From Sulfurospirillaceae bacterium (GTDB taxonomy: Bacteria > Campylobacterota > Campylobacteria > Campylobacterales > Sulfurospirillaceae): DNA of 64,000 nucleotides. Where the stretch lies: NCBI GenBank assembly GCA_033723415.1, contig JAWVXD010000002.1, positions 1-64,000 of the forward strand. The letters run 5' to 3'. How positions within the stretch are numbered: position 1 is the first letter of the stretch; the number at the start of each line of letters is the position of its first letter. The position numbers were made by a program, and so were the translations under genes. This document shows, piece by piece, positions 52,493 through 64,000 of this stretch. The notes under the pieces are model-generated. The model worked only from the letters and a program-made list of their open reading frames with translations. It was not told the origin of the DNA and did no database searches.

Positions 52493-53023
52493 TTATATCG
52501 TAGAATCTTTCATCGCTTGATGTAAAACAGCGATATTTTTTTCTGCCAATTTAGAATTCATTTGAGTTATTGCTGCTTCTATATCCTTTTGTGAAAAAGG
52601 GAAATGTGGGTCTCTAGCCAGTGTTGCTCCTAACATATAGACGTTTAGAGCTTGTATATCAAATTCTTTGTCCTTTGCTTTTTGATAAGCATCAATTTTA
52701 ATACTCTCATACTCAGTCTTTGGAAAATCATCACTTGCATTTACTATGATCGTACCTGTTTTTTTGTTTAAAAACTGTATATTTCGAAGTCCTTCATTTC
52801 CATCTAGAGCGATCAACAGATCAGCTTGTCCTTGGTCAATCGCCGGTGAATAAAAATCTCCGACTTTAACATAACATGACACAGACCCGCCTCGCTGACT
52901 CATACCGTGATTTTCCGTTCCTATACACTTTTGCTCATTTATAGAAGCAGCTATGCTTAGAACTTTGACTAAAAAAACCGCACCCTGTCCTCCAATACCA
53001 GCTATGACTATCTGATACCTCAT
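52493..53023 (-). CDS. iorB: Indolepyruvate:ferredoxin oxidoreductase beta subunit
   Basis: GIGGQG, HGMSQRGGSV and NVYMLG motifs. Confidence 0.9.
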   Translation of the reverse strand: MRYQIVIAGIGGQGAVFLVKVLSIAASINEQKCIGTENHGMSQRGGSVSCYVKVGDFYSPAIDQGQADLLIALDGNEGLRNIQFLNKKTGTIIVNASDDFPKTEYESIKIDAYQKAKDKEFDIQALNVYMLGATLARDPHFPFSQKDIEAAITQMNSKLAEKNIAVLHQAMKDSTI

Positions 53024-54828
53024 CTCTCAACCTCCATAAAAGCACCGGTCGGACACACATCATCCAAACATGCAGAACATCCTATACACAAAAATGGATC
53101 TATCTCGATCTTTTTGTCTTCATTATATGCCATAGGCGGACATTTATAAGCAGTTGTACAGATATCGCAAGCGACACATTTGTCCTGATCCACTGTCGCA
53201 TATGTTCCCGGTAGTTTTTCATAAGATATCTCTTTGTCAAGAACACAAAACTCTCTGATAACTGCTACGACAGGTGCATTTGATGATTCATATTTCTCTT
53301 TTAATATTTTCATAAACCCTATGGTTTTATCTATGTCAGGAACATATTCATACTCTAAACACTCGACTCCACATCCTTCTACTATCTTTTTGATATCTAT
53401 ACTTTGAGGGCTGATTCTCTCAGGAGTTACTTGCCTTCCTGTCATAGCGGTAGTTGAGTTATCCAAGATAACAAGCACAAATCTATGATTTAAGCTGACC
53501 GCGTTTATAAGAGGAGCAACACCGGAGTGCAAAAAGGTACTGTCGCCTATAGTAGCTACAACCGTTTTGTTTTTATCTGCTAGAGAGAAACCGCTTGCCA
53601 GTGAAACTGATGCCCCCATACATAAGAAAGCATCTATAGCTCCTTGATTAAGCCCAAGCGTGTAACAACCTATATCTGATGAATATATCGATTTATTTTT
53701 CTTAAAAACTTTCATGATAGAAAAGAAAACATCTCTGTGAGGACAGCCTGGACATAAATTTGGAGGACGATTCGGAAGTGTTTTTTCATATTTTTCATTT
53801 TTATAAAAATCACTTTTTGAGATTATTCCTACATTTGAAAAAGCTGCCAATACTTTATCTTTTGTAAACTCGTCTATTACATGCAGATCTTTTGTGAGTT
53901 TTCCGTGCAATTTAGGGGAACTTAGTTGTTCTTCTATACAAGGATAAGTCTCTTCAAAAACGATGACTTTTTCATATCCTTCAAAAAGTGCCTCAATTTT
54001 CTCTTTCGGCAGAGGATAAGACATATCAAATTTCAGTACATCGGCTTGAATATTCATCTCTTCTATGGCTTCTCTTACATATCCATCACCTGTTCCACTT
54101 GTAAGACACAAGACTTTTTTACCTTCTAACTTTTTGATTCTAGGCTCTATAAGACTTGTCCAATTGAACTCTTTAATGATCTCTATCTTTTCTAATAGCT
54201 CTAAACCTTGTCTAAATCTTCCGGCAGGAGGGACACCTGCCCATCGTGGGATATCTCTTATAAATTTACCTTCAAATGGATTGAAGTTCAATTCATCATC
54301 AACTTCACAGATCTCTCTGGCATGGCAAACTCTCATGACAGGACGTAACATGACAACCGTTTCAAATTGGTGAGATATTTCTATACCCAGTTTTACCATA
54401 TCGTAGGCTTCTTGAGGAGTGGCTGGATCTAAAACAGGAATTTTGGCAAACTTGGCAAAACTACGGCTGTCTTGTTCAGTCTGCGAAGAATGAAAACCAG
54501 GATCATCAGCACTGACCAGTAACATAGCGCCTTTTAGTCCGATATATGCCGCACTCATAAGCGCATCGCTTGCAACATTCAATCCCACCTGTTTCATAGT
54601 AGCACAAGTCTTTTTACCTGCTATTGCTCCTGCGTAGGCAACTTCAAATCCTACTTTTTCATTTGTAGCCCACTCGGCATAGGCATTGACATCAAAATTA
54701 TTTTTATATTTCTGAAAACTGCCTAAAATCTCACTTGACGGCGTTCCAGGATATCCTGAAATCATATCAACACCTGAGTGCACCAGTGAAAGCGCTATGG
54801 CTTCATTCCCCATAAGAATCTTCTTCAT
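53020..54828 (-). CDS. iorA: Indolepyruvate:ferredoxin oxidoreductase alpha subunit (ATG at 54828)
   Basis: LMGNEA, GYPGTPSSE, MKQVGLNVA, CPGCPHR, DIGCY, IGDSTF and two ferredoxin motifs. Confidence 0.94.
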   Translation of the reverse strand: MKKILMGNEAIALSLVHSGVDMISGYPGTPSSEILGSFQKYKNNFDVNAYAEWATNEKVGFEVAYAGAIAGKKTCATMKQVGLNVASDALMSAAYIGLKGAMLLVSADDPGFHSSQTEQDSRSFAKFAKIPVLDPATPQEAYDMVKLGIEISHQFETVVMLRPVMRVCHAREICEVDDELNFNPFEGKFIRDIPRWAGVPPAGRFRQGLELLEKIEIIKEFNWTSLIEPRIKKLEGKKVLCLTSGTGDGYVREAIEEMNIQADVLKFDMSYPLPKEKIEALFEGYEKVIVFEETYPCIEEQLSSPKLHGKLTKDLHVIDEFTKDKVLAAFSNVGIISKSDFYKNEKYEKTLPNRPPNLCPGCPHRDVFFSIMKVFKKNKSIYSSDIGCYTLGLNQGAIDAFLCMGASVSLASGFSLADKNKTVVATIGDSTFLHSGVAPLINAVSLNHRFVLVILDNSTTAMTGRQVTPERISPQSIDIKKIVEGCGVECLEYEYVPDIDKTIGFMKILKEKYESSNAPVVAVIREFCVLDKEISYEKLPGTYATVDQDKCVACDICTTAYKCPPMAYNEDKKIEIDPFLCIGCSACLDDVCPTGAFMEVER

Positions 54829-54868
54829 AAAACGGCTCCTCTTGCCTGAGTATGTCAAAACAAATATT

Positions 54869-55654
54869 TTAAGATGAGTACTTGTTTAAAAATTCAATAA
54901 ATGCTCTAGCTTCATTTTTCGGATAAGAACTTAAAATCTCCAATGATTTTTTAATATGTTCATCAAGCGGCATATCATCTATAGAATCTATGTGTAAGAT
55001 ATCTTCGATCCCGTCAATTTCAAATGAACATTTATCAAAGTGCAAAACAATAGTATCATCATTGAATTGTAACTTATAAAACTTTATATTTGAAGCTGCA
55101 AACTCGCAATCTTTTGTCTTGATCTTGATTTTCATGGCAGATTTTAATTCTAACAGCTGAATGATTGTTAAAAGTGAGTAGTGTGCTTTTGATTCAACAT
55201 TTAATGAAACCAATATTTTTGACACTGTAACTCTCATCTCTTCTGCATCTTCACGTGAGAAAAAATCAGAGTTTATCATATCAACGGCATCTATGATATC
55301 CGCATAATCATCTTTTACTTCATAAGTATCATTGATCATCTCTTTGCCTTCATGCATCAAGATGATTCTCTTTGACAATTCCTTAAAGACTTTTGTATAG
55401 TTTTCTGTATTTACCAAGATCGTCTCAGGTAGCTTATATTTTTCATAATACATCAATTTTGTATTTTGAATCTGCAAAAAACCTCTCTTTAGCAAATATT
55501 CACATCCATCTGCTATTTTTGCATTTATATCTAGGTTGTTAAACTCTTTTGTGTAGACGACATTTTTAAAATCTTTTTGCGAAAAAGCAGTGCCTTGATT
55601 TTTTATGGCATATGTCAAGATATTCACTATAAGTTCAAAGGTACAACTTTTCAT
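54869..55654 (-). CDS. Hypothetical protein, possible wHTH plus degenerate WYL-like domain
   Basis: 261-aa ORF with AAGGA RBS, first gene of the ior unit; domain call rests on pattern resemblance only. Confidence 0.6.
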   Translation of the reverse strand: MKSCTFELIVNILTYAIKNQGTAFSQKDFKNVVYTKEFNNLDINAKIADGCEYLLKRGFLQIQNTKLMYYEKYKLPETILVNTENYTKVFKELSKRIILMHEGKEMINDTYEVKDDYADIIDAVDMINSDFFSREDAEEMRVTVSKILVSLNVESKAHYSLLTIIQLLELKSAMKIKIKTKDCEFAASNIKFYKLQFNDDTIVLHFDKCSFEIDGIEDILHIDSIDDMPLDEHIKKSLEILSSYPKNEARAFIEFLNKYSS

Positions 55655-55752
55655 ATTATCCTTTCAGTTTAAAATTTTTAATTTTATAGAAAAACTACTT
55701 AATCTTGAGTTATTCCTATCTAAAACTAATATTTTATCAAGTCTTTTATGTT

Positions 55753-55793
55753 ATACTACAAAAAAATAATTAAATTAGTCATACTTGTAGTAT
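55753..55793. promoter_or_regulatory. Putative PaaX operator 1 (divergent promoter region)
   Basis: Perfect ATACTACAA...TTGTAGTAT (TACA-N25-TGTA). Overlaps plus-strand TGtTATACT and the -35 zone of a minus-strand TGaTAAAAT. Confidence 0.7.
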
Positions 55794-55824
55794 TTATTTT
55801 TTATAAATTTAAATAGGATTATGA

Positions 55825-56973
55825 ATGAGAAATGAAAGCAAAAAAAAAGTGATGGTTATAGGAGGCGGCTATGCAGGTATATCACTTCTACACGAATTAA
55901 AAAAGCATAGAGATATAGAACTTACTTTGATAGACAAATCACCAAATCACGTTATGCAGACCCATATACACAAGTACTTGTCCGGACACTACAGTAAAGA
56001 AGATATCACCTGTGACTATCAAGAGTATTGTAAAAAAAACTCCATAAGATTTATCCAAGATGAGATCATTGATATAAAATTTTCTGACAACTACGTTGAA
56101 ACCAAAAATGCCAATACTTATAAATACGATTATATCGTAATAGCAACAGGCGCTACATCCTTCTTTCCTACACAAATAGAGAACATAACAATGTTTACCA
56201 AAGATATAAAGCAGATAGAAAATTTGGATTATTATAGAGAGACTTTTTTAAAATTATTGAGATCTAAACCAAAAAATAAAAATATCCTAGTCGTAGGAGG
56301 AGGCGTTTCAGGACTTCAAATTGCCTGCGAATATGCTCAAACTATCCTATCAAATCATCTTAATTCTGAAAATATCGCCGTAACATTAGTTGAAGGACTT
56401 GATACTATCTTGCCCAATATGGACAAGTTTCTCATAGAAAAATCTATGCAAAGATGCGAACAATTGGGTGTAAAAGTCATAAATAAACTTTTTGCATCAA
56501 AAATATTTCAAGATAAAGTAGTCCTATCAAACTCACTTGAGCTACCTTATGATATCTTAATATTCGTAGTCGGCGTAGCCGGAAACTCCATCAAGAATAT
56601 AGAAAATGACGTAGCTTCAAATCAAAGAAACCAAATCATCGTAGATGAATATTACAGGATAGCTCCATATCAAAATGCCTTTGCCATAGGCGATATAGTA
56701 CAAGCTATAGATGTTAAAACTAAAACCTTTCAAACTCCTACAGCACAGGCTTCTAGAATGCAAGCAGAGTTGGTTTCCAAAAATATTATAAACAGTATAA
56801 AAGGCAGAAATCTAGTCAAAAACAACATTTCCAACAAAGGTATATTTATAGACTTAGGCGGAACGAACAGCGCTATAGGAAAACTCTCTGCTCTTAATAT
56901 AAAAGGTAAAATAGCTCTTTGGATGAAAAAGCTCATATATTCACTTCATATAAGAAAACTTAATAAAATGTAA
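55825..56973 (+). CDS. NAD(P)/FAD-dependent oxidoreductase, NDH-2/AIF-like
   Basis: GGGYAG, IATG, VVGGGVSG, AIGD and TAQ motifs. Confidence 0.88.
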   Translation: MRNESKKKVMVIGGGYAGISLLHELKKHRDIELTLIDKSPNHVMQTHIHKYLSGHYSKEDITCDYQEYCKKNSIRFIQDEIIDIKFSDNYVETKNANTYKYDYIVIATGATSFFPTQIENITMFTKDIKQIENLDYYRETFLKLLRSKPKNKNILVVGGGVSGLQIACEYAQTILSNHLNSENIAVTLVEGLDTILPNMDKFLIEKSMQRCEQLGVKVINKLFASKIFQDKVVLSNSLELPYDILIFVVGVAGNSIKNIENDVASNQRNQIIVDEYYRIAPYQNAFAIGDIVQAIDVKTKTFQTPTAQASRMQAELVSKNIINSIKGRNLVKNNISNKGIFIDLGGTNSAIGKLSALNIKGKIALWMKKLIYSLHIRKLNKM

Positions 56974-57005
56974 AAAAGTAATAAAAAAAAATAAAAAAAA
57001 TAAAG

Positions 57006-57044
57006 TACTACAGATTTATGTAAAGTTTAAGTAATATTGTAATA
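57006..57044. promoter_or_regulatory. Putative PaaX operator 2, upstream of the transporter operon
   Basis: TACTACA-N25-TGTAATA. Confidence 0.65.
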
Positions 57045-57094
57045 GACTTTTTTATAGAGACAAATGACTCTCATAAAATATAAAGGAAGTAAAT

Positions 57095-57160
57095 ATGAAA
57101 AACATTATAAAAATATCCAGTATTAAAATCCCTGCTTCTATAATGAAAGCTCAAATATGA
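57095..57160 (+). other. 21-aa uORF MKNIIKISSIKIPASIMKAQI coupled (ATGA) to the first permease; binding-protein deletion scar or leader peptide
   Basis: AAAGGAAG RBS; its stop overlaps the permease ATG. Confidence 0.55.
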
Positions 57161-58026
57161 GTGAATTGTTACAATTTATCTTTGGCGGTCTTACTGTCGG
57201 GTTTATATATGCTCTTGTAGGATTGGGCTTTACCGTAATCTATAATTCAAGCAAGATCATAAACTTTTCCCAAGGTGAGTTTGTCATGGTTGGCGGCATG
57301 TCTGCAGTATTTTTATCATATGCAAAATTCCCTTTTGTATTGGCGTTTCCAATCGCCATATTTCTTTCTTCTCTGCTAGGATATATACTGTTTAAACTTG
57401 TTTCTATATCAAAGAACTCATCAACTACATCTTTGATCATATTGACACTTGGTTATTCTATTTTTTTAAGAGGAGCGGCTCAAGTCGTGTTTGATAAACA
57501 GATGCACACTTTGCCGGCTTTTATAAGCAACACTCCTATAAATGTTTTCGGAGCTACTATAACTCCACAGGCAATTCTTGTAATCGTTGTATCGCTTATC
57601 ATAGTTTTTGGTTTGTATTTTCTATTTAACAAAACAAAACTCGGTAAAGCTATGCTTGCTACGGCAGATAATAAAAATGCAGCAAAACTTGTAGGTATTT
57701 CTGTTCGCAAGATATTGATCTGGAATTTTATGATCTCTGCAGGAATCGCTTCTATCGGAGGAATTGTTTTAACTCCCATAATATCTACAAATTATGAGAT
57801 CGGAATTATGCTCGGACTTAAAGGGTTTTGTGCGGCGATCATAGGCGGCATCGGCAATCCTTTCGGCGCTGTTTTTGGCGGAGTATTGCTAGGTGTGCTT
57901 GAATCTTTCGTTGCAGGTTATTTAAGCAGTGAATACAAAGATGCCGTCGCATTTATAGTTTTACTGTTGATTTTATTCTTTTTCCCGGGCGGTCTGTTTG
58001 GGTCTAAAAAATTTGTGAGAGTTTAA
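57157..58026 (+). CDS. HAAT/LIV-type ABC permease (LivH-like)
   Basis: YALVGLG, INFSQGE, LGKAMLA and GGIGN motifs. Confidence 0.92.
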   Translation: MSELLQFIFGGLTVGFIYALVGLGFTVIYNSSKIINFSQGEFVMVGGMSAVFLSYAKFPFVLAFPIAIFLSSLLGYILFKLVSISKNSSTTSLIILTLGYSIFLRGAAQVVFDKQMHTLPAFISNTPINVFGATITPQAILVIVVSLIIVFGLYFLFNKTKLGKAMLATADNKNAAKLVGISVRKILIWNFMISAGIASIGGIVLTPIISTNYEIGIMLGLKGFCAAIIGGIGNPFGAVFGGVLLGVLESFVAGYLSSEYKDAVAFIVLLLILFFFPGGLFGSKKFVRV

Positions 58027-58027
58027 T

Positions 58028-58969
58028 ATGAGAAATAATGGTTTATTTTTAGATAAGGGAATTGTGTTAATGATAGCCATATTGTGTATCTTGCCTTTGA
58101 TACTGCAAAATAGCTTTCACTATGAGATTGCGATCACAAGTATGTTAAATGCCGTCATCTGTATAGGTCTCAATATGCTGGTAGGATATGCCGGACAGAT
58201 CTCTCTGGGTCATGGAGCTTTTGCCGGACTTGGAGCATATGTTGCTATCATCCTCTCTACAACTTTTGGATTTGATCCTGTCTTAAGCATCGCTATATCT
58301 TGTATTGTTCTTGCTGTTTTGGCTTTTCTTGTATCAAAGCCTATCCTGAAACTTGAAGGTCACTATCTGGCTATGGGAACTTTGGCGGTAGGTATCATCA
58401 TCTCCCTTGTTCTTACTAATCAATCAGACTTAACGGGCGGACCTGACGGTATGAGCGTATCGCAATTTAGTATATTCGGATATGTGTTCAATAATGATAT
58501 GCAATGGTATGTGATTTCTGCTTTTCTTTTGGTTTTTTCTATTTGGGCGCTACAAAATGTCATTCATTCGCCATTTGGAAGGATACTCAGGTGTATCAGA
58601 GATTCTGAGACTGCAGCAAAATCAATAGGTGCAGACGTACCATACTATAAGACTTATGTATTTGTCATCTCCGTTGTTATAGCAACAATCGCAGGAAGTT
58701 TATATGCGTACTATTCAGGCTTTATATCTCCTGCAGATTCGAGTTTCACAAGATCAATCCAACTTGTCGTCATGATAGTCTTTGGCGGATTAGGAAGGAT
58801 TTACGGCGCTGTATTTGGAGCGGTGATCATCACGGCACTGCCGCAGCTTTTGACTTCCTTGCACGATTACGAGCAAATGGTCTACGGTGCGATTATTATC
58901 TTTGTCATGATATTTATGCCGAAGGGAATCGTATCCATATTTGACCGTTTCAGAAAGGAGGAGGTATGA
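58028..58969 (+). CDS. HAAT/LIV-type ABC permease (LivM-like)
   Basis: GYAGQISLGHGAF, GHYLAM and TGGPDG motifs. Confidence 0.92.
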   Translation: MRNNGLFLDKGIVLMIAILCILPLILQNSFHYEIAITSMLNAVICIGLNMLVGYAGQISLGHGAFAGLGAYVAIILSTTFGFDPVLSIAISCIVLAVLAFLVSKPILKLEGHYLAMGTLAVGIIISLVLTNQSDLTGGPDGMSVSQFSIFGYVFNNDMQWYVISAFLLVFSIWALQNVIHSPFGRILRCIRDSETAAKSIGADVPYYKTYVFVISVVIATIAGSLYAYYSGFISPADSSFTRSIQLVVMIVFGGLGRIYGAVFGAVIITALPQLLTSLHDYEQMVYGAIIIFVMIFMPKGIVSIFDRFRKEEV

Positions 58970-59742
58970 GCTTATTAAAAGTTTCAGGTATCTCTAAAAA
59001 TTTTGGCGGACTAAAAGCTCTGGATGATATATCATTTGAAGTACAAGAAGGAACTATACACGCGCTAATCGGTCCTAACGGAGCCGGGAAGACTACGCTT
59101 GTAAATATGATATCCGGCATATATTCTGTTGAAGAGGGACAAATTTTCTTCAATGATGAAGAGATCACAAATACACCGACCCACAAATTGGTAAGCAAAC
59201 ACATTGTAAGGACATTTCAAAATCTGGAGATCTGTGAAAATATGACCGTAATGGAAAACGTACTTCTTGGTTTCAATATCAATATGAATAAAAGTCTTCT
59301 AAAATGCTCTTTCCAATTTGAATCCATCATAGACGATGAAGAGAAGTTTAAGCACATTGCCTTGTCTCACCTTAAGCGAATAGGACTCGAAGATGTTGCT
59401 TATAAAAAATGTTCTTCCCTCTCTTATGGCGTACTTAAAAAAGTAGAGATCGTCAGAGCTTTAGCCAACAATCCAAAGCTGCTTTTACTAGATGAGCCTG
59501 TTGCCGGATTAAACGGTACGGAAACAGCAGAGATAGCAGAAATCATAAAAGAAATAGCAGCAGAGGGAGTCACAATACTTTTGATCGAACATGATATGAA
59601 AATGATCATGAACATCTCCGATATGATCACGGTGGTAAACTTCGGACAAAAGCTCGCAGAGGGAAAACCAAAAGAGATATCATCTAACCCTGAAGTGATC
59701 AAAGCATATCTGGGAGAAGGATCGTTACATGCAAAAGTCTGA
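58966..59742 (+). CDS. LIV-type ABC ATPase (LivG-like)
   Basis: FGGLKAL, GPNGAGKTT, RTFQN, LDEP and IEHDM motifs. Confidence 0.93.
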   Translation: MSLLKVSGISKNFGGLKALDDISFEVQEGTIHALIGPNGAGKTTLVNMISGIYSVEEGQIFFNDEEITNTPTHKLVSKHIVRTFQNLEICENMTVMENVLLGFNINMNKSLLKCSFQFESIIDDEEKFKHIALSHLKRIGLEDVAYKKCSSLSYGVLKKVEIVRALANNPKLLLLDEPVAGLNGTETAEIAEIIKEIAAEGVTILLIEHDMKMIMNISDMITVVNFGQKLAEGKPKEISSNPEVIKAYLGEGSLHAKV

Positions 59743-60454
59743 TTTATTATTGAAGATTAGTGATCTGGATTGTCATTATGGGCATATTCATGTTTTACAA
59801 AATATAAATATAGAGATCAAAAAAGGTGAGATAGTCGCACTGATCGGTGCAAACGGTGCAGGAAAAACAACTTTGATGAAAACTATCTCAGGACTTAAAA
59901 TACAAAATAAAGGCGATATCATATACAAGGACAATATAGATATCACAAAAACTCTGCCTGAAAAAAGAGTTAAGCTCGGTATCGCTCAAGTTCCTGAGGG
60001 AAGAGAGCTTTTCAAATCAATGAGCGTTTATGACAATCTGATGCTAGGTTCATACACAAGAACAGATAAACTCGGCATACAAGAAGATCTAGATTTTGTA
60101 TATGATAAATTTCCTATACTTTTTGAAAAAAGAGATATAATATCTGGCAATCTCTCAGGGGGACAACAGCAGATGCTTGCAATAGGCAGAGCGCTCATGT
60201 CAAAACCTGATCTTTTATTGATGGATGAACCCTCAATGGGACTGGCACCTGTGATCGTAGAAGAGATATTTGCTTTTATTGAAGAACTTAAGAAAATCCA
60301 CATGACGGTGTTTTTAGTCGAACAAAACTCATACTTTGCCCTCAGCATATCAAACCACGCTTATGTACTAGAAAACGGCGAGATCGTTTTAAGCGGTAAC
60401 TCTGAAGATTTGATCAAAGACAACAGAGTAAAAGAAGCATATTTAGGAATGTAA
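59729..60454 (+). CDS. LIV-type ABC ATPase (LivF-like)
   Basis: GANGAGKTT, VPEGR, LSGGQQQM and DEPSMGLAP motifs. Confidence 0.93.
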   Translation: MQKSDLLLKISDLDCHYGHIHVLQNINIEIKKGEIVALIGANGAGKTTLMKTISGLKIQNKGDIIYKDNIDITKTLPEKRVKLGIAQVPEGRELFKSMSVYDNLMLGSYTRTDKLGIQEDLDFVYDKFPILFEKRDIISGNLSGGQQQMLAIGRALMSKPDLLLMDEPSMGLAPVIVEEIFAFIEELKKIHMTVFLVEQNSYFALSISNHAYVLENGEIVLSGNSEDLIKDNRVKEAYLGM

Positions 60455-61228
60455 ATGAATTATAAAAATATAATAGTAGAAAAACTACAAAACGGTGTCG
60501 GTGTTATAACGCTCAATAGACCGGAAGCTTACAATGCAATCAACACTTTATTGCTTGAGGAGATATCTAGTGCCATCAAAGACTTTGATGCAGATCCTTT
60601 GATCGGAGCAGTAGTTCTAACAGGTGGAGATAAAGTTTTTGCTGCCGGTGCAGATATAAAAGAGTTGGCAAATCTAGATTTTGCAAGTGCTTACAATAAT
60701 GACTTCGTAAAAAAAGAGTGGTCGGCTTTGGAAAATCATGTCAAACCGATAATTGCAGCGATCAGTGGATATGCATTGGGTGGAGGTTGTGAGATGGCTT
60801 TGTTGTGCGATATCGCTATCTGTGATTGGAGTGCAAAATTCGGACAGCCTGAAGTTAAAATAGGAACGATGCCAGGAGCCGGCGGGACTCAAAGATTGAC
60901 CAAAGCAGTAGGAAAATCAAAAGCTATGCATATGTGTCTCACAGGCGATATGATAGATGCCAAAGAGGCAGAGTATTACAAACTTGTCTCAAAAATAGTA
61001 GATCATGATGTTATGAAAGAAGCTATAAAGATAGCAGAAAAGATTGCTTCCATGTCAAAGCCCGTCGTGAAACTGATCAAAGAGTCTATAAACAATGCAT
61101 ATGAATCAAATCTGCAAGCCGGATTGGTAGCTGAGCGACAATCTTTTTATGCAACATTGGCTCTTGAAGACAGGATCGAAGGTATGAATGCTTTTATCGA
61201 AAAAAGAAAAGCAAACTTTAAAAACTAA
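60455..61228 (+). CDS. Enoyl-CoA hydratase, PaaF/EchA8-like
   Basis: FAAGADIKE, ALGGGCE and FGQPE...PGAGGTQRL; both catalytic glutamates present. Confidence 0.92.
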   Translation: MNYKNIIVEKLQNGVGVITLNRPEAYNAINTLLLEEISSAIKDFDADPLIGAVVLTGGDKVFAAGADIKELANLDFASAYNNDFVKKEWSALENHVKPIIAAISGYALGGGCEMALLCDIAICDWSAKFGQPEVKIGTMPGAGGTQRLTKAVGKSKAMHMCLTGDMIDAKEAEYYKLVSKIVDHDVMKEAIKIAEKIASMSKPVVKLIKESINNAYESNLQAGLVAERQSFYATLALEDRIEGMNAFIEKRKANFKN

Positions 61229-61257
61229 CAATATATCTTTTAGAAAAAATAATACAA

Positions 61258-61297
61258 AAAATATAGCTATCATAAAAAAATAGTATAGCTATATTTT
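61258..61297. repeat. AT-rich inverted repeat built from two ATAGCTAT palindromes
   Basis: AAAATATAGCTAT-N14-ATAGCTATATTTT. Confidence 0.55.
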
Positions 61298-61430
61298 AAA
61301 ATAAATATCATTTTTATTAAAAATAAGCTTATCTCCCAAGAATAGAGACTACTATGACCAATAATCAATTCTAAAATGAACTTAAACAGTTCTAAATATC
61401 TAACTTTTTAAGCCCTTATTAAAATATATA

Positions 61431-61469
61431 TGATACAATAATATTTAATTTACTAAAATAATTGAAGTA
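61431..61469. promoter_or_regulatory. Putative PaaX operator 3, overlapping the extended -10 of the oxygenase operon
   Basis: TGATACA-N25-TGAAGTA; the left half overlaps TGaTACAAT. Confidence 0.6.
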
Positions 61470-61499
61470 TATTTTCAATAACTAAACAAGGAGCACTAA

Positions 61500-62525
61500 A
61501 TGTCAAGCAGAGAAAAACTTGCCGGAACAATGGAATTTCCACCGCCTACTGAGCAGCCAAATGTTTACCCGCTAAGCTGGGTTAATAAAACAATGAAACT
61601 GCAAGAAATCTGGGATGCTTCTCAAAGAGAATACTGGGATCCTGCAAAACTGCCTTGGGATACTTTTGATGTATCCAAATACAGTTGGGAACAGAGGGAA
61701 TCTATAGCCTATTGGTGGACAATTCTTTCTGTATTTGACGCTTCTGCGCCTCCTGTATTTGCATCTGCCCTTATCAAGACTTATGAATTACATGAAGAAG
61801 ATCTAGTTAGAAGATGTTTTTTTTCTGTTACAAGAGATGAGCAAAATCACGAACAAATGTGTGGTATGGCTATTACAAAATTACTAGAACATCCGGATCC
61901 TATAACCTATACACCTAAAACAGATATCGGTAAAAGACTCCAAAAAAATGCAAAATGGTTATATTACAATGGAGGAAGATATTGGGATGGTTTTAAACAC
62001 GCAGTTCCAAAATACTCACTTGCAGTTCTTTTTTCATCATTTTTGATGGGTGAGATCGCAGCTGCGACAATATTCCACCAAATGTCAGCAGGATGCAGTG
62101 AGCTGGTATTTAAAGAAGGTTTTAAGAAAATAGGTATGGATGAAGGTAGACATATGGCTATCATATTGACACTTATGGAGAGAGATTATCCAAAACTGAA
62201 CAATGAAGATAAAGCAACTATAACCAAACAGATAAGAGCCGGTTACTTATTTCTCTCTGCCGTTTTGTTTGAGCCGCCTGAAGATTTTTGGGATATCCCA
62301 TCAGACTTTATCGCCAATCAAAGAGAAGGTGAAGCATTTGCCAGAGAAGCAGGTTTTCACATCCCTGAGTATGAAGCAAAAAAAGAAAATTGGAAAAATG
62401 CGATGCTTAATCTAAAAGGCGTCCTAGATAAATACGATACAGAATTCCCGGCAATTCCAGAAGTAGGAATCACCGGTAAAGAGATCACGGATATCGATAT
62501 GGAAGATATCATCCCTGTATTTTAA
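61500..62525 (+). CDS. Ferritin-like diiron-carboxylate protein, putative oxygenase
   Basis: Ligand pattern D80, E114xxH117, E185, E215xxH218; AAGGAG RBS; adjacent to a reductase. Confidence 0.8.
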   Translation: MSSREKLAGTMEFPPPTEQPNVYPLSWVNKTMKLQEIWDASQREYWDPAKLPWDTFDVSKYSWEQRESIAYWWTILSVFDASAPPVFASALIKTYELHEEDLVRRCFFSVTRDEQNHEQMCGMAITKLLEHPDPITYTPKTDIGKRLQKNAKWLYYNGGRYWDGFKHAVPKYSLAVLFSSFLMGEIAAATIFHQMSAGCSELVFKEGFKKIGMDEGRHMAIILTLMERDYPKLNNEDKATITKQIRAGYLFLSAVLFEPPEDFWDIPSDFIANQREGEAFAREAGFHIPEYEAKKENWKNAMLNLKGVLDKYDTEFPAIPEVGITGKEITDIDMEDIIPVF

Positions 62526-62549
62526 AAATTTAGTTATAGGTCAAAGATC

Positions 62550-63569
62550 ATGAAAAAAATAATTATACAGCCATCGGGCAAATCGATTGATTGCCCGGAT
62601 GGAGAATCAGTACTTTCCGTATTGGAAAAACAAGGTTACGCACTACCTAATAACTGTAGAGCTGGTGCTTGCGGAGAGTGTAAAATAAAAGTTTTAAGTG
62701 GTACCTTTGACCAAGGTTTTGTTATGGATATGGCTCTGTCACAAGCTGATAGAGCTGCCGGTTTCGGCTTGATGTGCATGGCAAAACCAACTTCTGAAGT
62801 TTTAGAAATAGAATTTGGAACAGAAGATGCCAAGCCAAAACTATTTCCACCTGTTGAAAATTCTTGGCATATCGTCACAGACAAGATACAAAGAACAGAT
62901 AAGATACTGGAATTAAAACTTGCTCCTTTAGGTCAATCAATCAAATTTTGGCCAGGTCAATATGCGATGATAGGAGACGGAACAGCTGAACATCCATTGC
63001 GACCATACTCAATCGCAAATGCTCCAAAACAAAATGGAGAATTGAGCTTTTTTATCACAAAAGAAGAAGGCGGCAAAACAAGTCCTTGGATACATGATGA
63101 AGTAAATATTGGAGACAATATCAAAGTCAACGCTCCTTATGGAACATTTCTGGGAGATCCAAGCGTGAATACACCAATACTTTGTCTGGCTTCGGGAAGT
63201 GGTTTAGCACCCATACTTTCTTTGTTAAATGCATATCTAAGCAGAGGACACAAAAATCCTGTAACTCTTTTGTTTTCAGCCAAAACGAAAAAGGACCTCT
63301 TGCATTTTGGTAAGATAAAATATTTAGAGTCAAAATATGTCAACTTCAAATACAAATATACACTTACACAAGAAAGCAACAAAGAGGGAGGACTGGAAGG
63401 CAGGATAAGTACAGTTTTACCTAATCTTATACCAAATCTAGCAAACTATTCTATCTATATCGCCGGTGGAGTTTCCTTTGTGGAATCTTGTAAAAAGACT
63501 GTAGAAGCCCTTGGAGCAGAAGAAAATCTGATCCATATGGAAGAGTACTTTGCACAACAAGTGCAGTAG
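62550..63569 (+). CDS. 2Fe-2S/FAD/NAD(P)H oxygenase reductase (FNR family)
   Basis: CRAGACGEC...LMC, RPYS, GGKTS and GSGLAP motifs. Confidence 0.93.
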   Translation: MKKIIIQPSGKSIDCPDGESVLSVLEKQGYALPNNCRAGACGECKIKVLSGTFDQGFVMDMALSQADRAAGFGLMCMAKPTSEVLEIEFGTEDAKPKLFPPVENSWHIVTDKIQRTDKILELKLAPLGQSIKFWPGQYAMIGDGTAEHPLRPYSIANAPKQNGELSFFITKEEGGKTSPWIHDEVNIGDNIKVNAPYGTFLGDPSVNTPILCLASGSGLAPILSLLNAYLSRGHKNPVTLLFSAKTKKDLLHFGKIKYLESKYVNFKYKYTLTQESNKEGGLEGRISTVLPNLIPNLANYSIYIAGGVSFVESCKKTVEALGAEENLIHMEEYFAQQVQ

Positions 63570-63587
63570 CGGATTACTTTAATCCGC
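63569..63587. terminator. Hairpin overlapping the stop codons of the convergent reductase and paaX genes
   Basis: GCGGATTA-ctt-TAATCCGC. Confidence 0.55.
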
Positions 63588-64000
63588 CAAATCTGTTAAA
63601 ATAGAACTTATCTAACTTTGGATTGTTACCTCCGACTGTCAGCAAATTCTCTTTTATATATTCATTTGCCTGGTTATGAATAGCAGCGTAAACAGAATCA
63701 ACCAAAGATGCGGCAGCTTTCCCAAGCCAATCTATCGAAACCAGTTCATTTCCTAGTTTAGGATCATATAAAAGTGCCCTTCTGTACTCATGGATCAACA
63801 ATATTCTCAACATAAAACACTGCTTCGTAGTAAATTCATCAATCGGTGTTTTAAGTGCAAATATTTTTCTAAATTTCGTGATAAAACTCTGATATCTCTC
63901 TTCAACGTCTTTTAAATCCCAAAAGATATTTGCCATATCTTTCAAAATCTCCTTATTCATAGGCATATCCGCAGTTCCGTTTATAAGTAAAACATCATTT
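63574..64000 (-). CDS. paaX: PaaX family aryl-CoA-sensing repressor, C-terminal part (continues beyond the window)
   Basis: WDL...Y..F and LLIHEYRRALLYDPKL...DWLG PaaX C-terminal signature; frame open to the window edge. Confidence 0.88.
   Translation of the reverse strand, partial: NDVLLINGTADMPMNKEILKDMANIFWDLKDVEERYQSFITKFRKIFALKTPIDEFTTKQCFMLRILLIHEYRRALLYDPKLGNELVSIDWLGKAAASLVDSVYAAIHNQANEYIKENLLTVGGNNPKLDKFYFNRFGGLK

Follow-up and report, generated by a model that had tools for sequence, protein, structure and literature searches.

In silico analysis of a 64,000-nucleotide stretch of DNA from a Sulfurospirillaceae bacterium, comprising positions 1-64000 of contig C2 and referred to below as the window, has revealed at its end the left half of a phenylacetate/phenylalanine catabolic (paa) island of about 22.5 kb, which extends from contig position 52493 to approximately 74970. 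The region is an otherwise canonical paa island, putatively under PaaX-type control, combined with a lineage-specific putative IorAB feeder. The multi-subunit phenylacetyl-CoA epoxidase PaaABC(D)E is absent from it, and a diiron protein and its reductase, encoded by two adjacent genes, form the sole oxygenase of the island. Judged from sequence and gene context, this two-component diiron oxygenase probably substitutes for PaaABC(D)E as the phenylacetyl-CoA epoxidase. The genes in question and the neighbouring regulator gene, cut by the window edge, are located as follows:

61500..62525, plus strand: 341-residue single-subunit diiron-carboxylate oxygenase, candidate phenylacetyl-CoA ring epoxidase (assigned from the metal-ligand pattern, the structural model and the gene context)
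62550..63569, plus strand: reductase with plant-type [2Fe-2S], FAD and NAD(P)H domains (Pfam)
63574..64000, minus strand: 3' part of paaX, C-terminal 141 codons (PaaX_C, 83 bits; cut-off 22)

The host genome has a size of 2.43 Mb in 17 contigs and is rated 100% complete; the closest named protein match is that of Sulfurospirillum sp. 1612, with 97% identity. The genes have been assigned from a listing of open reading frames together with Pfam and NCBIfam profile scans, and all those named in the initial annotation, which had been made from the sequence of the window alone, were recovered in place. It had also allowed for more paa genes past position 64000, and these are indeed present. The following 11 kb carry on the minus strand the full-length paaX, a gene for a 200-residue hypothetical protein and paaK, J, I, H, G and F, on the plus strand paaN and paaY, and at contig 73730-74875 (minus strand) livK. 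The 200-residue protein (contig C2:64584-65186, minus strand), situated between paaX and paaK, has no Pfam family and is kept at 46-49% identity in five other Campylobacterota islands. The sequence past 64000 was also searched for paaABCDE, gentisate and homogentisate genes, none of which was found there. The flanking genes on the left (PEBP, methyltransferase, NUDIX and GGDEF genes) and on the right (bactofilin, yeiH and lysR) are unrelated to paa, which sets the span of the island as given above; the GC content is 0.36 in the island and 0.345 in the genome.

Among the Paa enzymes four score above the cut-offs of their models: PaaN (715 bits, cut-off 579), PaaJ (670, cut-off 605), PaaI (137, cut-off 119) and PaaH (571, NF006124 cut-off 508). 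PaaK (623, cut-off 646), PaaG (338.5, cut-off 345), PaaF (312, cut-off 371) and PaaY (250, cut-off 320) are best matches just below them, and PaaN is of the aldehyde-dehydrogenase-only type. The subunits of the indolepyruvate-type 2-oxoacid:ferredoxin oxidoreductase (IOR), PaaX and several Paa enzymes find their best profile matches below the NCBI equivalog cut-offs, and are thereby treated as family members of uncertain exact specificity. In the whole genome no match was obtained to the PaaA/PaaC family (PF05138, E<=1) or to PaaB (PF06243), and tblastn with PaaA, PaaB and PaaC from the Comamonadaceae locus L030 returned only matches with E>1; BoxB (TIGR03225) was not found in the genome either. 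The absence of PaaABC(D)E, first noted for the window, thus extends to the whole complete genome. According to PMC9007349, the paa pathway requires an epoxidase to supply PaaG and PaaN. It is the presence of PaaK, J, I, H, G, F, N, Y and X, together with the lack of PaaABC and BoxB and with the diiron pair as the only oxygenase of the island, that makes this pair the proposed substitute epoxidase. Aromatic catabolism is, as the initial annotation held, atypical for Campylobacterota, PaaN being present in 2 of 301 sampled genomes.

The missing canonical epoxidase and the several Paa proteins just below equivalog cut-offs could also suggest a decaying or incomplete paa cluster without ring oxidation, serving only phenylacetyl-CoA formation and thioester housekeeping. 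Such decay is highly improbable. All island genes are intact open frames; the gene set is kept at 46-91% identity (paa enzymes 55-87%) in eight other Campylobacterota loci and is also present in a second complete genome of the genus; the operators described below are conserved; and in strains CUZ and NSS, described in PMC4453571, clusters of a comparable kind are expressed and sustain growth. The same-genus complete genome likewise has PaaN and lacks PaaA/C.

The 341-residue protein has no Pfam or NCBIfam family. Its sequence contains two (D/E)ExxH motifs and two further carboxylates at helix spacing, the arrangement characteristic of ferritin-like diiron-carboxylate proteins: acidic residue 80 (D/E), E96, D113-E114-x-x-H117, E185 and D214-E215-x-x-H218. 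Among 21 aligned members, with identities as low as 22%, position 80 is acidic (D or E) throughout, E114, H117, E185 and H218 are each kept in 20, E215 is kept in 19, and E96, D113 and D214 are invariant. One representative (P0122 of the family alignment A1, 53% identical), in which conserved A, P, R and T are systematically swapped to V, L, C and I, and metal-ligand H to Y, looks like a damaged or mistranslated record and not like a real variant. The AlphaFold model of the protein (predicted local distance difference test 86.0, predicted template modelling score 0.83) was compared with solved structures. Foldseek placed ribonucleotide reductase (RNR) R2 and R2lox on top, with a TM-score of about 0.5. 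VIA-align gave R2lox 4hr0 as the best match (Z 20.1, root-mean-square deviation 3.2 over 265 residues), followed by R2 (Z 18.9), an ADO-like protein (Z 18.7), the sMMO alpha subunit (Z 16.2), PaaC 3pvr_B (Z 14.8 over 217 residues, below R2lox, all belonging to one superfamily), AurF and CmlI (Z 14.4 and 13.8) and BoxB (Z 13.9). As modelled, the diiron protein has an R2-type helical bundle fold, similar to R2 and R2lox.

Membership in the named oxygenase families has been tried and rejected. The protein gives no PF05138 match even at E<=10, and hhalign of the family alignment A1 against a PaaA alignment of 11 sequences (A3) yields a probability of 2.1%. With the AurF family model PF11583 it reaches 16.1 bits (E 0.0067), short of the cut-off of 29.6, and a profile search of the PDB with the family returns weak matches only, to R2, R2lox, DesA2, ADO and AurF. 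By all five approaches (Pfam, hhalign, PDB profile search, Foldseek, VIA-align) the protein resembles PaaA and BoxB at superfamily level only. The 24-nt gap between the diiron and reductase genes holds no extra small gene that could encode a partner subunit of the PaaB, PaaC or PaaD kind, and fused forms of the diiron protein (598-2000 residues) were not found, which is weak evidence. In view of the failed sequence tests, the diiron protein forms a branch of its own among the diiron-carboxylate oxygenases and cannot usefully be regarded as a homologue of PaaA.

The reductase is composed of three domains: Fer2 (residues 5-81), FAD_binding_6 (residues 112-200) and NAD_binding_1 (residues 213-315). 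Its best NCBIfam matches are BenC (162 bits), MmoC (140 bits) and PaaE (133 bits), and also AntC, all below their equivalog cut-offs, and its solved relatives include 5ogx, 1krh, 7c3a and 4wqm. It has the BenC/MmoC/T4moF domain order, the type serving BenABC, sMMO and T4MO. PaaE carries its [2Fe-2S] domain at the C-terminus; the TIGR02160 alignment, joining reductase residues 126-335 to profile positions 26-243, is consistent with this. The reductase gene adjoins the diiron gene in 77 of the 80 genome loci examined.

A word-indexed search identified 884 relatives of the diiron protein. The best 120 of these are all 339-352 residues long and at least 76% identical, and are named, where a name is given, hypothetical protein, rubrerythrin, ferritin-like or AurF. 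An exhaustive search gave 223 representatives at 50% clustering, many of them fragments, and this low number points to a compact family. The 80 genome loci, in which the protein is 73-91% identical to that of the window, span Campylobacterota, Alpha-, Beta- and Gammaproteobacteria and Actinomycetota; the family is also present in a metagenome-assembled genome (MAG) of Sedimenticola thiotaurini. In a quick tree the rows group largely by taxon. The nine Campylobacterota rows form one clade (SH-aLRT 100), which falls among betaproteobacterial rows with weak support, and no donor has been drawn from it. In the same tree the diiron protein and liv genes of one Stygiobacter sp. MAG (Ignavibacteriota, L034) nest in the Magnetospirillum clade, which suggests a binning error or a recent transfer.

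The initial annotation foresaw that the homologues of the diiron protein would be linked to aromatic catabolism genes, and their neighbourhoods bear this out in several unrelated lineages. Paa-type genes lie inside the fetched flanks at 36 of the 80 loci: 8 whole islands of Campylobacterota, 4 loci of Comamonadaceae, 3 of Rhodocyclaceae/Accumulibacter, 17 of Azospirillum type, 2 of Oxalobacteraceae/Burkholderiaceae (paaY, paaX), 1 of Rhodospirillaceae and 1 of Chromatiales. At least six lineages have the diiron gene within or next to paa genes. At the 17 Azospirillum-type loci it is accompanied by livKHMGF, paaX and often paaY. More distant homologues from metagenomes, 46% identical, stand behind a PaaR-like TetR regulator (TetR_C_24) and before a crotonase gene.

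Co-occurrence across genomes leads in the same direction. Among 50 carrier genomes 17 are without PF05138, of which 16 have PaaN above cut-off. An even sample of 201 Rhodocyclaceae genomes holds the diiron protein in 36, PaaN in 83 and PaaA/C in 42; PaaN is present in all 36 carriers (in one as a contig-end fragment) versus 47 of the 165 non-carriers. Half of the carriers (18/36) are without PaaA/C, and PaaK is present in every one of these 18. The diiron gene and paaN stand next to each other in divergent orientation in at least 14 Rhodocyclaceae genomes. The sampled genomes are related to one another, so that these counts overstate their independence. Of 151 genomes sampled from the order to which the Magnetospirillum-like genome G010 belongs, 3 have the diiron protein, too few for statistics; all three have PaaN and lack PaaA/C, and in at least one of them the diiron gene and paaN are divergent neighbours. 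The idea of a non-PaaA oxygenase within an aromatic CoA pathway, put forward in the initial annotation, is supported both by this linkage and by the paa genes past 64000 that come without paaABCDE.

The gap itself has a published precedent. Carlstrom et al. 2015 described strains CUZ and NSS, which grow aerobically on phenylacetate without paaABCD and keep only a "paaE", and whose phenylacetate proteins are most strongly expressed on phenylacetate with oxygen; the epoxidase was left unidentified in the passages concerned (PMC4453571). The work cited by those authors indicates that BoxB does not accept phenylacetyl-CoA. The text layer of their supplementary Figure S1 gives the order hyp, paaK, livK, H, M, G, F, paaX, paaE, hyp, paaZ, F, G, H, J, and Table S1 leaves out, for each of the two strains, a locus tag that falls between paaE and paaZ, CUZ_04216 and NSS_00036180 respectively (PMC4453571). 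As far as these supplementary items go, the arrangement of reductase, unnamed gene and paaN/Z is that seen in Rhodocyclaceae. A full-text literature search, outside which most subscription journals lie, returned no paper naming or characterising the diiron family. The description of the system as new in the initial annotation thus holds for the enzyme, which is not identified in print, and not for the gap itself, which the text of PMC4453571 already laid open in 2015.

On these grounds the following course of the pathway may be proposed. The LIV-type ABC transporter would import phenylacetate, which PaaK would activate; alternatively, IorAB would make phenylacetyl-CoA directly from phenylpyruvate. 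Electrons would pass from NAD(P)H to the FAD and [2Fe-2S] of the adjacent reductase and on to the 341-residue diiron protein, where oxygen would be activated at the site formed by D80, E114, H117, E185, E215 and H218 and the ring of phenylacetyl-CoA would be epoxidised in place of PaaABC(D)E. According to their family assignment, PaaG would make oxepin-CoA, PaaN would oxidise the aldehyde, and PaaI and PaaY would serve as rescue thioesterases; the ring would be opened by a crotonase, for which the 257-residue hydratase beside the diiron gene is a candidate. PaaX would bind TAYTAC-N27-GTARTA boxes and would be released by phenylacetyl-CoA.

The full paaX gene (contig 63574-64512) encodes 312 residues and reaches 234.9 bits with TIGR02277 against an equivalog cut-off of 264.55, which marks the product as a divergent PaaX-family protein. 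The putative regulatory sites of the window are:

55754..55792: operator 1, TACTACA-N25-TGTAGTA, exact, between the hyp-iorAB unit and the flavoprotein gene
57006..57044: operator 2, TACTACA-N25-TGTAATA, exact, upstream of livH
61258..61297: perfect 13-nt inverted repeat AAAATATAGCTAT-N14-ATAGCTATATTTT, just after the stop codon of the hydratase gene
61431..61469: degenerate operator-like site TGATACA-N25-TGAAGTA, three mismatches, overlapping a promoter-like hexamer pair (61430-61459)

The motif TAYTACA-N25-TGTARTA, equivalent to the 6-mers TAYTAC and GTARTA with a spacing of 27 bp, occurs exactly three times in the genome, at 55754, at 57006 and, upstream of livK, at contig 74928, each time in a promoter of the island. 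Allowing up to one mismatch raises the number to seven, of which the island holds five, the two new ones at contig 71261, between paaF and paaN, and at contig 73689. The latter site (contig C2:73689-73727) falls where paaY and livK converge, a place at which a promoter is not expected. Other gap lengths from 15 to 35 give no or one match in the genome, and 100 shuffles of the window gave a mean of 0.04 matches, none of them reaching the two observed. Equivalent boxes are present in the same intergenic regions of other Campylobacterota islands, those of operator 1 in L004, L005, L009 and L010; upstream of the diiron gene, L004 and L024 have boxes and L006 has one that is shorter by one base. 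In E. coli the PaaX operator is TGATTC(N27)GAATCA, with spacing equal to that of the island box (PMC9493321). The inverted repeat at 61258-61297 is unrelated to the operator motif and could be a hairpin or the operator of another regulator. The region upstream of the diiron gene was also searched in other lineages (17 Azospirillum, 4 Magnetospirillum-like and 4 Comamonadaceae loci) for perfect 6-mers with a spacing of 26-28 bp, and nothing was common to more than two loci. The initial annotation had placed one palindrome in three promoter regions under PaaX control: the exact sites at 55754 and 57006 uphold this in part, and operators are found at the iorAB operon, the flavoprotein gene, livH, livK and paaF/paaN, whereas none at the diiron gene of the present genome is convincing. 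The diiron gene may be read through from the liv-hydratase operon.

Several observations weigh against the diiron pair as a substitute epoxidase. The best site in the 271-nt region upstream of the diiron gene, that at 61431, is not significant alone, as 261 genome sites are as good. The protein shows no special likeness to the CoA-ester epoxidases PaaA, PaaC and BoxB. That the "hyp" gene of CUZ and NSS belongs to the diiron family is our inference. Furthermore, 12 of the 201 Rhodocyclaceae genomes have PaaK and a PaaN-like gene without either PaaA/C or the diiron protein. Such genomes could be incomplete MAGs, box-pathway relatives or holders of another oxygenase; the PaaN-like matches may include the related dehydrogenase of the benzoyl-CoA box pathway. 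In three Rhodocyclaceae genomes (G408, G526 and G383; loci L083-L085) clusters of paaK, paaI and a paaN-like gene lie beside succinyl-CoA synthetase genes, and a third type of oxygenase was not found around these loci, where only the synthetase and unrelated genes occur. The remaining objections concern genomes with both oxygenases and loci without paa genes, and each of them can be read in favour of a different function.

PaaA/C is present in 33 of the 50 carrier genomes, and in the Comamonadaceae loci L030, L033, L044 and L050 a single string paaK-diiron-reductase-paaA-paaB-paaC is formed (L030:8520-14370). An arrangement of this kind cannot be accounted for by simple replacement alone. The pair could instead be an oxygenase of the phenylacetyl-CoA regulon with another job than PaaABCE, complementing the canonical epoxidase; it might act on substituted or other aryl-acyl-CoA esters (4-hydroxyphenylacetyl-CoA, or indoleacetyl-CoA from IorAB) or at another ring position, or deal with a side product. 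The Azospirillum pair, grouped with paaX, livKHMGF and paaY and separate from the paaABC/paaN cluster, agrees with such a division of work, as does the general knowledge that IOR-type enzymes accept several arylpyruvates. However, a complementary job would leave the present island and at least 16 other genomes with PaaG and PaaN and no source of epoxyphenylacetyl-CoA. Hydroxy-aromatic ring-cleavage genes were not found within the island, and the strains described in PMC4453571 grow aerobically on unsubstituted phenylacetate without paaABCD. We consider it unlikely that the pair has such a separate job.

At 44 of the 80 loci no paa gene lies in the flanks, and the neighbours sampled there are unrelated housekeeping genes. 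In addition, an actinobacterial subfamily from soil, with about 46-50% identity, is located by dapA, the RNase J gene (rnj) and ftsK; an adjacent reductase homologue was not found there by blastp, and the role of this subfamily may differ from that of the core family. This neighbourhood is conserved at L089, L100, L110, L146, L153 and many other loci, and an acyl-CoA dehydrogenase gene sometimes precedes the diiron homologue. Both facts would suit a general R2lox- or rubrerythrin-like protein, engaged for example in lipid or cofactor modification or in oxygen or peroxide handling, which merely lies near paa genes while another oxygenase serves the pathway. R2lox and RNR R2 as best structural matches, and a conservation resembling that of housekeeping proteins, fit the same idea: the median identity to the window protein outside Campylobacterota is 79% (n=72), as against 56% for the reductase, 57% for PaaK, 60% for PaaJ, 45% for PaaG, 43% for PaaN and 33% for PaaX. 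A general role is nevertheless quite improbable, considering that every carrier in the Rhodocyclaceae sample is PaaN-positive, that the protein is rare elsewhere, as in the order of G010, that an oxygenase-type reductase is paired with it almost throughout, that it is repeatedly the divergent neighbour of paaN, and that the island offers no other oxygenase candidate. The assignment of the diiron pair as the epoxidase of the island remains the probable one.

The remaining genes of the island within the window are:

52493..53023, minus strand: iorB-like gene, gamma/POR domain subunit of an indolepyruvate-type 2-oxoacid:ferredoxin oxidoreductase (PF01558, 99 bits)
53020..54858, minus strand: iorA-like gene, subunit with thiamine pyrophosphate (TPP) and two [4Fe-4S] clusters (TIGR03336 IOR_alpha, 586.6 bits, cut-off 650.9, residues 11-607)
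54869..55654, minus strand: 261-residue hypothetical protein, first gene of the hyp-iorA-iorB unit (no family in Pfam or NCBIfam)
55825..56973, plus strand: NDH-2-like FAD/NAD(P) flavoprotein (Pyr_redox_2, 140 bits)
57157..60454, plus strand: livH, livM, livG and livF, permeases and ATPases of a LIV/HAAT-type ABC importer (BPD_transp_2 twice, ABC_tran twice)
60455..61228, plus strand: crotonase-family enoyl-CoA hydratase of 257 residues (ECH_1, 258 bits)

The IorA-like protein also possesses TPP_enzyme_C, POR_N and Fer4 domains, and for the IorB-like subunit the IOR beta models are the best in NCBIfam, with at most 106.7 bits against cut-offs of 205-348. Neither the alpha nor the beta equivalog cut-off is reached by IorAB; the architecture and the best matches are of IOR type. 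Located behind the operator at 55754, the hyp-iorA-iorB unit is a putative member of the PaaX regulon in the present genome. IorA is present in 3 of the 8 other island-bearing Campylobacterota genomes and was located next to the island only in the complete genome of the same genus, about 16.5 kb from paaN, the same distance as in the present genome; in the other two, IorA and the island are on different contigs. The linkage of IorAB with the island, which the initial annotation had regarded as part of the system, is thus real within this genus, is local to it and is not general. Loci L116 and L143 present a 39%-identical diiron homologue beside IorA, IorB, PaaG, PaaF and PaaK homologues, an independent association which shows that the combination arose more than once. 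These two loci (L143:7553-15333 for the latter) are metagenome contigs with a GC content of 0.40 from a low-GC organism, and the stretch fetched contains no reductase.

The 261-residue hypothetical protein has a best Atlas score of 0.82, which is chance level, and homologues with 51-75% identity in 6 of the 8 other Campylobacterota islands. The best solved relatives of the flavoprotein are type-II NADH dehydrogenases (NDH-2), the top one being the S. aureus NDH-2-like 5na1 (E 9.5e-30), and for the transporter genes the LivH, M, G and F models are the best NCBIfam matches, below their cut-offs. The crotonase scores 352 bits with PRK05862, 287 bits with PaaF and 170 bits with oxepin_alt, all below cut-off. 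Its gene stands directly upstream of the diiron gene in all eight other Campylobacterota loci, which makes the enzyme a candidate for ring opening; from its sequence it may be an oxepin-CoA hydrolase or a second PaaF.

A wider proposal, tentative at this stage, is that one diiron subunit and one reductase constitute a minimal aromatic-CoA epoxidase which came from the R2/R2lox branch, independently of PaaA and BoxB, and is preferred at low oxygen. It would explain why microaerophiles and denitrifiers (Sulfurospirillum, Arcobacter, Magnetospirillum-like bacteria, many Rhodocyclaceae, and probably Sedimenticola and Dechloromarinus) have the pair as their sole epoxidase, why the pair is retained alongside PaaABCDE in aerobes, and why it is coupled here to an oxygen-sensitive IorAB feeding aryl-CoA from amino-acid-derived keto acids.

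The paa pathway is reported for about 16% of sequenced bacteria (PMC9493321), and PaaA and PaaC serve as its genomic markers (PMC13186573). Because the 2026 survey in PMC13186573 selects paa clusters by PaaA/PaaC, as far as its selection step is described, clusters like the present island would be missed. If the two-gene oxygenase is the epoxidase, a gap open in print since 2015 would be closed, aerobic attack on aromatic rings would extend to Campylobacterota and other microaerophiles, and a simpler enzyme, of two genes instead of five, would be available for epoxy- and oxepin-CoA, the precursors of tropone natural products. It would also raise the question why one subunit stays at 74-91% identity between phyla.

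Compared with known systems, the diiron pair would occupy the same place in the pathway and in the paa clusters as PaaABC(D)E of E. coli and Pseudomonas, and shares with it a ferritin-like diiron-carboxylate oxygenase, an NAD(P)H/FAD/[2Fe-2S] reductase and a PaaX-type regulon. The differences relate to the number of subunits, one 341-residue protein standing in place of PaaA, B, C and D, and to the reductase, whose [2Fe-2S] domain is N-terminal in the island. BoxAB, the benzoyl-CoA 2,3-epoxidase, is likewise a two-component diiron epoxidase of an aromatic CoA ester; in contrast to the present protein, BoxB has about 470 residues and belongs to another family, with the low structural score given above, and BoxA is a different kind of reductase. 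R2lox and RNR R2 have the same site of four carboxylates and two histidines and are the best structural matches, whereas the sequence identity is only 9-15%, and the shared fold does not show a shared function. For R2lox neither a dedicated reductase gene nor a physiological reaction is known. The arylamine N-oxygenases AurF and CmlI are single-subunit diiron oxygenases of similar length, and some members of the present family are labelled "AurF"; these enzymes act in antibiotic synthesis, unlike the diiron gene of the island, whose context is CoA-ester catabolism. Further counterparts are the CUZ and NSS clusters as drawn in PMC4453571, which combine paa genes without paaABCD with livKHMGF, paaX, a "paaE" reductase and an adjacent unnamed gene by paaZ, and which differ from the island in belonging to a different phylum and in being, in the gene order given there, without IorAB.

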